Position numbers and translations under genes: made by a program. Below, piece after piece: positions 3,514 through 57,342 of a stretch of 64,000 bases of DNA (position 1 is its first letter; each line of letters begins with the position of its first letter). The DNA comes from Shigella phage Sf23. The stretch lies in the sequence record MF158046; one strand, given 5' to 3'. Below the pieces are notes generated by a model, which saw nothing but the letters and a program-made list of their open reading frames with translations, had not been told where the DNA came from and did not search any database.

Positions 3514-3678
3514 TTACTCTTCTTTTTCTTTAGATTCCTCTTTCTTCTTTTTAGGAATCTGTTCAGGACCTTTATTTACTACAGCGCCTGACGTTGTTCC
3601 AGTAGAGATATTTTCAGGATTACCACCTGAATCTCCAGCTACCATATCTTCTTTAATAAATTCTTTATATGTTTTCAT
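3514..3678 (-). CDS. small protein with internal-protein-like capsid targeting N-terminus (54 aa)
   Basis: Hand-translated ORF below the track cut-off: MKTYKEFIKEDMVAGDSGGNPENIST...KEESKEKEE; ATG 1 nt after the stop of ORF 3680..4036; N-terminus matches T4 IP capsid-targeting consensus MKTYQEFIAE. Confidence 0.45.
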   Translation of the reverse strand: MKTYKEFIKEDMVAGDSGGNPENISTGTTSGAVVNKGPEQIPKKKKEESKEKEE

Positions 3679-45700: not shown

Positions 45701-46162
45701 TCATTGAGTTTTAATTACTGCTTTAGAAGCCTTTCCTGGTAAACGACGACTGTTGATAATTGCCATCCTGCACTGAAGTGACGGGTCTTTGAACTTCTCG
45801 TTAGGTTTACAAACTGTAAATCCAAGCCAAAGATTTCCATCTGTGATTTCTAAACGCCCAGGACGATATTCAACCCCATCAATAAAATCCTCATCAATAT
45901 CAGGGCGTGGAGGCATACTCAGGAATTCATTAACTTCTAAAACATGGTCTTTTATTTTATGGAATAATTCAAAAACATATGTCTCATCAATCTCCCGTTG
46001 AATTGCACGATCAAGAAGATGCTGAGAATATTTTAGATGAAACGATGAGACCCCTGCTGCTTTTGATGCCTCACGAATCTCATTGTTAATTTGACGAAAC
46101 TCCGACTCAAAGTGACGACGGAGCTTATTTCGACGGATAAAAACTTCTGTATTGATAGTCAT
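45701..46162 (-). CDS. regB: RegB site-specific endoribonuclease
   Basis: 153 aa as in T4; strong early promoter directly upstream. Confidence 0.88.
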   Translation of the reverse strand: MTINTEVFIRRNKLRRHFESEFRQINNEIREASKAAGVSSFHLKYSQHLLDRAIQREIDETYVFELFHKIKDHVLEVNEFLSMPPRPDIDEDFIDGVEYRPGRLEITDGNLWLGFTVCKPNEKFKDPSLQCRMAIINSRRLPGKASKAVIKTQ

Positions 46163-47349: not shown

Positions 47350-47679
47350 TCAATTAGAAAATAAATTTATCCAAGATTGTTCTTTAATTAAAAACGGCTC
47401 AGAATCATATGCCATTAAACTTTGGGTAATTAATCCTTTAAAAGGTCCATCAATAAATTCCATGGTAAAATATGGAATTTTATTCATTAACTGCGCGTTA
47501 GGAGCAGTGCACAAAACTCTGCATCCTTTGAATACGCCTTTTTGTAATTTGTATTGCTTGGGATAAAATTCGCTCAAAATGTTATTATTTGCCAAAATTT
47601 CAAAATGATTCACCAATTTATTTTTAATAGTTTTTGGCGAAAAATAAAGATATTCGAAAAGCTGTGTGTCTGTCATCAT
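47350..47679 (-). CDS. hypothetical protein (109 aa)
   Basis: ORF. Confidence 0.45.
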
Positions 47680-48266
47680 TGCATTCCAACCACAAAAAAT
47701 TGAGGACGAACTGTTTCACCTGTTTCAGCATTATAGCTTCGACAACAGTGTTGTACCGTTTTAATATGGATATTGTAAATCTTATCCATATCAGGAGCTT
47801 TAATAGGTTCGTCAATTATGTACAAGATACGAGAAAGCGATAACCCACGGAATTTATGACCTTCATTACCGATAAAACTACGGACAGAATCAGTAAATAA
47901 ACGGAATCGAATATCATCATTAGAATAACGCGAAAATTCCTTTTTAATGTTATTTGCAGAAATTTTAGCGTAAGCTGAAGTATTAGAAAGAACAATAACT
48001 GTTCCGCCATCATACAGCCAATTAGCAGCAAAGTTAGTCACAGCAATTGATTTACCGGATTGACGTCCACCATCTATACGAAGTGTGCAGTACTGTTTGA
48101 GCACATCTTCCATTGGTGGAAGATAATCATTCTTACAAATTTCTTCTACTCTAGCATCAGAATGGTGTGTAAAAGCATTCATCAGGGATAGATAAGGACC
48201 AGTTAAAAATGTTCTCATTTTATTCTCTCTAAGTTTGGGCCATTCCGTGGCGCATGAATTGTCCAT
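47676..48266 (-). CDS. P-loop NTPase-like protein (196 aa)
   Basis: Walker A-like GGRQSGKS and Walker B-like ILYIIDEP. Confidence 0.5.
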   Translation of the reverse strand: MDNSCATEWPKLRENKMRTFLTGPYLSLMNAFTHHSDARVEEICKNDYLPPMEDVLKQYCTLRIDGGRQSGKSIAVTNFAANWLYDGGTVIVLSNTSAYAKISANNIKKEFSRYSNDDIRFRLFTDSVRSFIGNEGHKFRGLSLSRILYIIDEPIKAPDMDKIYNIHIKTVQHCCRSYNAETGETVRPQFFVVGMQ

Positions 48267-48359
48267 TTCTGTATTTACCCATTACCGCACTTGGGCTCGA
48301 CCTTATCACAGGTTGGCGGGAATCCCTCACAGAATCATGAGGTCCAGGTTGTTCCCATA

Positions 48360-48833
48360 TTATTTGAACGATTTAACGTACTGAATAGAACCCTTACTAT
48401 TCACAAAGGCAATTTTACCATTTTTATTATACATGGTAGCAGTACGCTGATAACCATAGGTTTGTTTACCAGATTGATAACCAACTAATGCAAAATTATC
48501 TTCACCCATTTTATTCTGTTTAGCGCGAATGCGTTCATGACCATGTGCCATAAGAACCTTAGCATCACCAGTTGCAATGGATCGACGAGTTTTTTCATCT
48601 TCAACTGCATTAACAAAGTCGTCAAATGAATCAAATTTAGCATGAGATTTATTATACAATTTTCCATCTACTGCATAATTATATCCCTGTACATCCATTT
48701 CAACTTCTGTACCATCATCCAATACAGCAGTAATTTTTTGACCTTTTTTAAATTTCAAAAGATCAGTAAAAGATTCAGCAATAATTTGAGAATTAATAGC
48801 TGCTTCAGTGATAAATTCTTGATATGTTTTCAT
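48360..48833 (-). CDS. internal-protein-like capsid protein with capsid targeting sequence (157 aa)
   Basis: N-terminus MKTYQEFITE matches T4 IP capsid-targeting consensus with I-x-E prohead-protease site; basic body. Confidence 0.6.
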   Translation of the reverse strand: MKTYQEFITEAAINSQIIAESFTDLLKFKKGQKITAVLDDGTEVEMDVQGYNYAVDGKLYNKSHAKFDSFDDFVNAVEDEKTRRSIATGDAKVLMAHGHERIRAKQNKMGEDNFALVGYQSGKQTYGYQRTATMYNKNGKIAFVNSKGSIQYVKSFK

Positions 48834-48842
48834 GGGTTTCCT

Positions 48843-49259
48843 TTAAATGTAAATATTTTTACCGTAATACTTATACCAATGTGGTTTCATTAAAATTTTT
48901 TCATCAAGTCGTTGTTGACTCAATTTAATAGCTGATTTGCATGGATTATAATCATTTTTCCATTCTATTGGAATATCGCTGATGTCAGGAACTTCAGTAT
49001 CTTTTATACTGAACCCGCGTTTTAAGCATTCCGTTATAATGTCTAATTGACGCTTTCGCAAAAATTCTAACTTATCGTAAAAGAACGTAACATGACCAGA
49101 ACCTAAAATAAACTCGGAAGATATTTTAAAATCTTTAACGCGCTTACCGTTTGCCACATGCTTACGAACTATACCAAAAACACGCGGCAATTCACGGTAT
49201 TCTGCGATTAAATGTTGATCAGCAAGTTCAGATACTAAAGTCAAATTAATACGAGTCAT
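48843..49259 (-). CDS. denV: endonuclease V (pyrimidine dimer DNA glycosylase) DenV
   Basis: 138 aa; N-terminus [28 protein letters not shown] matches recalled T4 endoV. Confidence 0.92.
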
Positions 49260-49277
49260 TTTATCCCTCCAAGTAAC

Positions 49278-49318
49278 TGTGAATATACTATCACAATTCT
49301 AGGAGAAAGTAAACAACT
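49278..49318 (-). promoter_or_regulatory. early-type promoter upstream of denV
   Basis: GTTTAC (rc 49309..49314) with -10-like element near 49283..49291. Confidence 0.45.
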
Positions 49319-50287
<969 letters not shown>

Positions 50288-50306
<19 letters not shown>

Positions 50307-50776
50307 TCAGTGATAAAGTTATTTAAATTTTGAGTATATTTCTTTTCATCAAAAATCTTTTGTTGTCTGCGTAGCCGCCATGGCATTTCAATGAACGTGT
50401 ACCATATCCCAGATAATATTGCTGCAGTAAAAATATTAACAAGTATGGTTAAAAGAATCCAATCTCCTATTCTGTCCATTGGATTTTTTATAAAAAAGTA
50501 AAATACGAATGATGTCACAGGAAGACTAATAATATACCACAGAATCATAATTTTATCTGTGAACCAATCAGCGTTCGTTAACTTAGCGCGACCATTATGA
50601 ATACACACGAATTTATCATCTGTTATAATAGATGGCTTAGCTGCTTGATATCCCATTCTAAACTCCCTAATCAACAAATTTTTCATATCTTCGGAACAAC
50701 CATTCCAGTCAACTCTATCAACTGAAATGCCATCATCCCCATCATCTAAATCATACCAGCGAGTTTTTAAAATCAT
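50288..50776 (-). CDS. membrane protein, CRK[IL]K-tail paralog (162 aa)
   Basis: TM helices; C-terminus NFITECRKLK. Confidence 0.5.
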
Positions 50777-57084: not shown

Positions 57085-57342
57085 TTATTTTAAATCTTCT
57101 AATCGTTTCTTCATCTTAGAACCATTTTTAGCGATTTCTCCTGCGTCAGAGCATAATGCTAAAAGTGCTTTAACTTTAGTTTGGTCTCCTTTAAAAGACG
57201 AAGGATCGACTGCAGCAGCAAGTTCTTTAATACGAGAGAAAAGACGCTCAGCTTCAGCTAAAGCCATTCCAAGCTTTACTTCCATACCATGAGAAGATTC
57301 AGTGATAATAGTTTCTGTAGCAAACTCTTTATAAGTTTTCAT
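57085..57342 (-). CDS. internal-protein-like capsid protein at the ipI locus (85 aa)
   Basis: N-terminus MKTYKEFATETIITE (CTS-like, I-x-E site); adjacent to 57B where T4 carries ipI. Confidence 0.6.
   Translation of the reverse strand: MKTYKEFATETIITESSHGMEVKLGMALAEAERLFSRIKELAAAVDPSSFKGDQTKVKALLALCSDAGEIAKNGSKMKKRLEDLK

Follow-up and report, generated by a model that had tools for sequence, protein, structure and literature searches.

The Ip4 (ipIV) gene next to denV in Shigella phage Sf23 encodes a predicted packaged, and possibly anti-defence, internal protein

Between denV and vs.8, on the minus strand of the window analysed here (a 64,000-nucleotide stretch of Shigella phage Sf23, sequence record MF158046), lies a gene whose 157-residue product is identified by homology as Ip4 (ipIV), a T-even internal protein (IP) that already bears a name. 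The best explanation overall, to which we would give a probability of roughly 0.7, is that Ip4 is packaged in the head, cleaved and injected, and that it would block a host defence. Gene, name and family are already on record, as is the variability of the locus, and the finding itself adds little to this. As for why Ip4 deserves attention, work from 2022 to 2025 has shown that Ip1, Ip2, Ip3 and an ipI-locus protein of phage Bas37 each counter one particular type IV restriction enzyme, and Ip4, which is commoner than IPII and IPIII in the phage collection searched and as conserved as lysozyme, is a sensible candidate for target hunting. This bears on the host range of phages of the T2/RB51/wV7 type, a group that includes several phages for O157 typing or biocontrol.

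The gene and its neighbours

A preliminary description of this DNA had pointed to a 157-aa ORF with the N-terminus MKTYQEFITE on the regB side of denV, had called it internal-protein-like, and had set the short distance between denV and e (about 60 bp, with neither ipII nor ipIII in it) against a T4 layout in which these two genes sit between denV and e. All of these points were borne out, as can be seen from the genes concerned:

48833..48360, minus strand: Ip4 (ipIV) coding sequence, precursor of 157 aa (ORF list; Pfam DUF7412; PHROG 3155; annotation of RB51, wV7 and T2)
48843..49259, minus strand: denV (endonuclease V), 138 aa, immediately upstream of Ip4 (78% identity to T4 DenV; Pfam Pyr_excise)
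49319..49813, minus strand: e (lysozyme), 164 aa (97% identity to T4 e)
47676..48330, minus strand: vs.8 region, in which the T4-type first 33 codons (48330..48229) are severed by a stop (tblastn with T4 vs.8)

Read along the minus strand, the order is nudE (50306..49851), e, denV, Ip4, vs.8 (from 48218 or 48266 to 47676) and regB (46162..45701). The Ip4 ORF opens with an ATG, has the N-terminus MKTYQEFITEAAINSQ and starts 9 nt past the denV stop, preceded by AAAGGAAACCC, whereas the gap between denV and e is a mere spacer of 59 nt (49260..49318). In the annotated T4 record (NC_000866), the order is vs.8-denV-ipII-ipIII-e, in agreement with that layout.

The flagged ORF is a genuine gene rather than a chance reading frame, because (i) it matches Pfam DUF7412 at E 9.4e-96 (318.7 bits, where the cut-off is 27, with residues 1-157 on profile positions 1-158), (ii) it matches PHROG 3155, 'internal virion protein', at E 1.2e-101, and (iii) it differs from its T2 counterpart by 12 synonymous changes and a single non-synonymous one. 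Over 47600-50400, megablast gives about 99.9% identity to Escherichia phage wV7 and 99.1% to RB51, and the ORF is labelled 'Ip4' in both of these records (that of RB51 adds 'similar to T2, RB70 Ip4 and e IG'), 'ipIV internal head protein' in T2 and Ip4 in K3 (UniProt Q38388). The Ip4/ipIV of T2, K3, RB51, RB14 and wV7 is thus the same protein, of the same length and at the same locus, with the difference that in T2 and Bas43 ipIV comes straight after e, with no annotated denV, whereas the copy in the window follows denV.

The gene is widespread. When the mature part was used in tblastn, Ip4 was found in 469 of 50,697 phage records, as compared with 261 for T4 IPIII and 198 for T4 IPII in the same collection; 305 of these records are at least 95% identical (220 at 99-100%), while 160 fall at 60-80%, a group made up mainly of Klebsiella and Salmonella phages. 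Jiaodavirus and Gelderlandvirus are other genera in which it was seen, and a protein from a Serratia phage shows 61% identity. Since as many as 410 records cover at least 80% of the 2.8-kb vs.8-Ip4-denV-e-nudE segment in one place, the arrangement is a common one and not special to Sf23.

Downstream of Ip4, T4 vs.8 matches in tblastn as two pieces in different frames, with the main vs.8 ORF starting at 48266 or 48218, and RB51 annotates a shorter vs.8 gene. The T2 homolog of vs.8 looks disrupted too, with no more than a 110-aa ORF in the annotation. The segment 48229..48359 (minus strand) has a GC content of 0.50 against about 0.33 in its surroundings, and is kept in T4, T2 and Solly regardless of whether the frame is continuous. 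The idea of a structured RNA or terminator near Ip4 was dropped, since a search of Rfam with 47500-50500 (E up to 1) returned no match, the fold stability of the GC-richer 151 nt downstream of Ip4 is nothing unusual (z +0.59), and a scan of the minus strand, including the stretch from e to vs.8, yielded no terminator.

A family of its own

Exhaustive HMMER searching of 1.84 billion representative proteins returned only five clusters, all of them Ip4-like, and no annotated bacterial relative. Every full-length cluster has an N-terminus that resembles the targeting signal (the 100-aa P0018 matches over its C-terminal ~35 residues only), including three remote ones that start MNF(E/K)(Q/D)FLNE↓S or similar (here and below, the arrow marks a predicted cut). 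The family therefore appears, from these searches, to be confined to proteins with such a signal. Among the remote homologs, P0015 sits on a 2.8 kb contig, and P0016 had no match when the phage collection was searched by tblastn. Searches of NCBIfam, PADLOC and PDB sequences with Ip4 gave nothing above sub-threshold noise.

The preliminary description had itself raised the possibility of a straightforward IPII or IPIII ortholog, relocated by annotation convention only. That Ip4 might be such an ortholog, displaced across denV or renamed, has the shared first 10 residues and the shared locus in its favour, as well as a tblastn match with T4 IPII at E 1.7e-4 over 79 residues, targeting sequence included. 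The similarity is nevertheless limited to those first 10 residues, and once the targeting sequence is removed it is gone, with BLASTP E values of 0.46 against IPII and 5.3 against IPIII, which led us to reject the idea. Tblastn of the window with T4 IPII and IPIII likewise picked up only the first 10-15 codons of three signal-bearing ORFs (the first 13 of IPIII on Ip4), and the PHROG families of other IPs match only the N-terminal part of Ip4, from residues 1-13 up to 1-66, at E 1e-3 or worse, while Ip4 has a Pfam family to itself. Furthermore, Ip4 and IpII are found side by side in the Jiaodavirus K65PH164. An orthologous origin can therefore be as good as dismissed, and these similarities place Ip4 in a separate family.

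What Ip4 does share with T4 IPII and IPIII is the targeting sequence, the I-x-E↓A motif, the leader, the e-to-vs.8 locus, a basic mature protein and, presumably, the route of packaging and injection. It differs from them in its mature sequence, which is unrelated, and in that GmrSD targets are established for IPII and IPIII (PMC12373910).

Targeting sequence and mature domain

The precursor can be divided into three parts:

48804..48833, minus strand: capsid-targeting sequence, aa 1-10, MKTYQEFITE, with a predicted prohead-protease site I-T-E↓A (identity to T4 IPII/IPIII)
48774..48803, minus strand: linker, aa 11-20, with a second conserved [ILVM]-x-E-[S/A] motif at its end, I-A-E↓S (family alignment; motif scan)
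48363..48773, minus strand: folded domain, aa 21-157, with a beta-rich core and a three-helix insert

Nine of the 10 residues of the targeting sequence are identical to the MKTYQEFIAE of T4 IPII and IPIII, whose precursors are numbered 'AA -10 to ...' in GenBank X04567, and M1, K2, F7 and E10 are near-invariant in the family alignment. The predicted gp21 site (cleavage motif L/I-x-E, cut after the glutamate) is I8-T9-E10↓A11. A second protease site is possible at the motif formed by residues 18-21, in which E20 is at least 90% conserved across the family alignment and followed by S or A; the remote homolog P0016 likewise has two LNE↓S motifs. Together with its position between denV and vs.8, in one of the two variable IP loci (e to vs.8, the other being next to 57B), these features make it very likely that Ip4 is a packaged and processed internal protein.

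Cut after E10, the mature protein would have 147 aa, a mass of 16.5 kDa and a pI of 9.1 (9.6 for IPII and 9.65 for IPIII). The structural model is confident (pLDDT 91) and depicts a small barrel with a helical insert, for which the search for structural relatives gave no informative or enzyme match, the only significant match in BFVD being 'Ip4 [phage K3]' (Q38388). Fold and profile searches thus offered no functional lead. The family alignment has 49 invariant columns, and dN/dS is 0.02-0.035 within Tequatrovirus and 0.11-0.13 to the Gelderlandvirus copy, which is about as for lysozyme e and gives no sign of arms-race evolution at the sequence level.

Cassette exchange and expression

The origin of the arrangement is best appreciated from its junctions and promoter elements:

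48836..48861, minus strand: ip leader with Shine-Dalgarno, TAAAAATATTTACATTTAAAGGAAAC, overlapping the last denV codons (leader identity to T4 ipII)
49260..49318, minus strand: e-denV early-promoter and stem-loop cassette, GTTTAC...N18...TAGTAT, arms AATTGTGA/TCACAGTT (T4/T2 comparison)
48331..48359, minus strand: downstream junction after the Ip4 stop, GGGAACAACCTGGACCTCATGATT (T4/T2 comparison)
49847..49840, minus strand: TATAAATA, T4-type late promoter motif before e (pattern search)

All 26 nt of TAAAAATATTTACATTTAAAGGAAAC are identical to the leaders of T4 ipII and of an extra ip gene in Solly. This conserved leader encodes the last five denV codons (K-N-I-Y-I-stop; 48843..48861), whereas T4 denV ends in K-A-I-Y-A-stop with a different DNA sequence, and the recombination joint therefore appears, from this comparison, to lie inside the 3' end of denV. 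The cassette between e and denV has the same sequence as that found after e in T4 (where it precedes ipIII) and in T2 (where it precedes ipIV), and it is of the type called PeSL-like for the IP loci (PMC2839356). GGGAACAACCTGGACCTCATGATT recurs unchanged immediately behind the stop codons of T4 denV and T2 ipIV. Variants of the locus include e-ipIII-ipII-denV in T4, e-ipIV in T2 and Bas43, e-denV-Ip4 in the window, e-denV-ipX-Ip4 in Solly, e-x-denV-Ip4-ipY in CGG4-1 and e-Ip4-IpII in K65PH164, and they differ exactly at the early-promoter/stem-loop elements. Judged by these shared junctions, the locus differs between phages by exchange of whole cassettes at the conserved ip leader and targeting codons.

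Such behaviour has precedents. In the part of PMC2839356 that recounts Repoila et al. (1994), the two T-even IP loci are said to be hypervariable and flanked by early promoters and stem-loops, with more than 30 IP variants, and the difference between the window and T4 is a polymorphism of the IP locus already described. Similarly, in the PeSL-type cassettes (Arbiol et al., 2010; PMC2839356), as at the IP loci, repeated early-promoter and stem-loop elements flank genes, here those of ip. The T-even IP-locus elements were described as analogues, not homologues, of the PeSLs of RB49 and phi1 (PMC2839356), and the window departs from that pattern in that the shared ip leader and targeting codons act as junctions too. 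The claim of a rearranged IP repertoire made in the preliminary description was thus half right: the set is unlike that of T4, but this is not peculiar to the phage, and it reflects common replacement of cassettes, not relocation.

Several of the other variants have features of their own. Solly carries, between denV and Ip4 (L010, 1542-1859), a 105-aa signal-bearing gene whose product starts MKTYQEFIAE↓SAAGQRVEGG..., and in Salmonella phage CGG4-1 (L011, 3021-3284) Ip4 is followed by an 87-aa protein starting MKTYEEFITE↓SVKAPKG.... In Klebsiella phage vB_Kte_K65PH164 (L009, 2450-3050), the annotation splits the Ip4 homolog into two overlapping CDS, and tblastn matches it in two pieces, which suggests a frameshifted and possibly inactivated copy. 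In Bas43, which is TadeuszReichstein, no denV is annotated between e and ipIV, as in T2.

As for expression, denV and Ip4 are probably co-transcribed. No copy of TATAAATA was found on the minus strand between e and Ip4, and because the one before e is the nearest upstream and no terminator was detected from e to vs.8, Ip4 probably has two sources of transcript, the early promoter before denV and late read-through that starts at e. Early-promoter leaders of this kind also precede T4 ipII and ipIII.

What Ip4 might do

What is known of other IPs provides the framework: the targeting sequence directs packaging of what is a diverse set of defence proteins (PMC3012670), which enter the prohead core, have their signal removed by the prohead protease and exit with the DNA (PMC3012670, PMC9391042). 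Ip1, Ip2 and Ip3 act as inhibitors of GmrSD enzymes, a different one in each case (PMC12373910), the ipI-locus internal protein of Bas37 (Bas37_0260) inhibits McrBC (10.1101/2025.11.20.689424), and IPIII without its targeting sequence functions from the host cytoplasm (PMC9391042). Going by this T4 biology, the Ip4 precursor, made from the early promoter of denV and by read-through from the late promoter of e, would be brought by its targeting sequence into the scaffolding core of the prohead, where gp21 would trim 10, or possibly 20, residues from its N-terminus. What is left, a basic mature protein, would stay with the packaged DNA and be injected along with it. By analogy only, it would then bind and block one of the host's first lines of defence, and this would most likely be a type IV (modification-dependent) restriction enzyme, a target that we favour because every T-even IP with a known target blocks one.

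The model for protection of incoming DNA by an injected protein is T4 IPI*, an inhibitor of the GmrSD of E. coli CT596, which is likewise small, compact and packaged, and which has its own fold (PMC3012670). IPI* differs from Ip4 in its locus (the one next to 57B), its sequence and its size (76 aa against ~137-147 aa), and inhibition of GmrSD is demonstrated for IPI*, whereas for Ip4 inhibition is an analogy only. In a literature search, we came across no report of Ip4 in virion proteomes or of its injection, its sole mention being in a supplementary legend (PMC12373910); going by Supplementary Fig. 9 of that paper, ip4-10 gave no reproducible inhibition on a panel of GmrSD variants. Both points weigh against the favoured explanation, as do the lack of a TATAAATA motif directly before Ip4, which leaves late expression dependent on read-through from e, the dN/dS values without signs of an arms race, and the fold and profile searches.

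Confidence accordingly falls as the claims become more specific. That Ip4 is an anti-defence protein is, by analogy with its better-known counterparts, slightly better than an even bet, while the narrower proposition that it would inhibit a type IV restriction enzyme is, on the same analogy, doubtful. A little short of even odds, we would place the reading in which Ip4 is an injected inhibitor of a host defence not yet matched to any phage counter-measure, perhaps a type IV variant that the GmrSD panel did not include, or else some other first-line system. If this were true, the defence in question would be conserved across Escherichia, Shigella, Salmonella, Klebsiella and Yersinia, and it would be clear why Ip4 is the commonest cassette at its locus and under such strong purifying selection.

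Other roles can be envisaged for a protein of this kind. Instead of hitting a specific host target, Ip4 could act structurally and in a general way, as a basic protein packaged to neutralise the charge of the DNA or to assist packaging or ejection, in keeping with a mature pI that makes it basic like IPII and IPIII, a very low dN/dS, its presence in several genera with different hosts and the lack of a GmrSD target in the published panel. Such a role is hard to reconcile with the fact that T4 and many relatives do without Ip4, that all four IPs of known function have specific enzyme targets, and that Ip4 is predicted to be a compact folded domain and not a low-complexity polycation, all of which makes it unlikely. 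Injection of an enzyme (a hydrolase or modifying enzyme) in place of an inhibitor was suggested by H64, D79, D90, H99, E111 and D112, which are invariant in the close family, but this invariance is lost once remote homologs are added, and we dropped the idea as very improbable. The combination of a barrel fold without an enzyme match and no invariant catalytic-looking residues fits a binding protein.

The role of the signal itself might also be questioned, since Ip4 follows the early gene denV at a distance of just 9 nt and has no late promoter to itself, and since a host-expressed IPIII that lacks the targeting sequence works (PMC9391042): the signal could be vestigial and Ip4 a cytoplasmic early protein only, made after infection from the denV early promoter. 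Yet the targeting sequence and cleavage motif are conserved family-wide, remote members with a variant signal included, which would not be expected of a signal no longer in use, and T4 ipII and ipIII have the same early-promoter leaders although their products are packaged. This makes a purely cytoplasmic Ip4 a distant outsider when compared with a packaged, injected protein that would block a host defence.

Other signal-bearing genes

Ip4 is not alone in the window. A back-translated MKTY[Q/K]EF pattern, ATGAARACNTAYMARGARTTY, occurs three times, against 0.05 expected, and two further genes have a signal or signal-like N-terminus:

57342..57085, minus strand: IP5, 85 aa, N-terminus MKTYKEFATETIITE↓S, at the ipI locus next to 57B (wV7 'putative internal head protein IP5')
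3678..3514, minus strand: gp61.1, 54 aa, homolog of T4 gene 61.1, with the signal-like MKTYKEFIKE↓D

IP5 is present in 495 phage records. The rest of the genome to which the window belongs is inferred from wV7 and not seen, and the window is not identical to wV7 throughout, since two coordinate offsets differ by 224 bp. No copy of ATGAARACNTAYMARGARTTY was found in the other 102 kb of wV7, with up to two mismatches allowed, nor is any ipII or ipIII annotated in this phage, so that its lack of further IP genes is to be read as the outcome of a pattern search (at most two mismatches) and annotation, not of tblastn.

Unlike IP5, gp61.1, which has matches in 1395 phage records, is labelled only as hypothetical in the records seen. 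Over residues 2-38, it can be aligned with residues 57-93 of wV7 gp23, the major head protein (43% identity, E 1e-8), in such a way that E10 of gp61.1 is aligned to E65 of gp23, which we take to be the site at which gp23 is cleaved during maturation. The C-terminal tail of gp61.1 is rich in lysine and glutamate.
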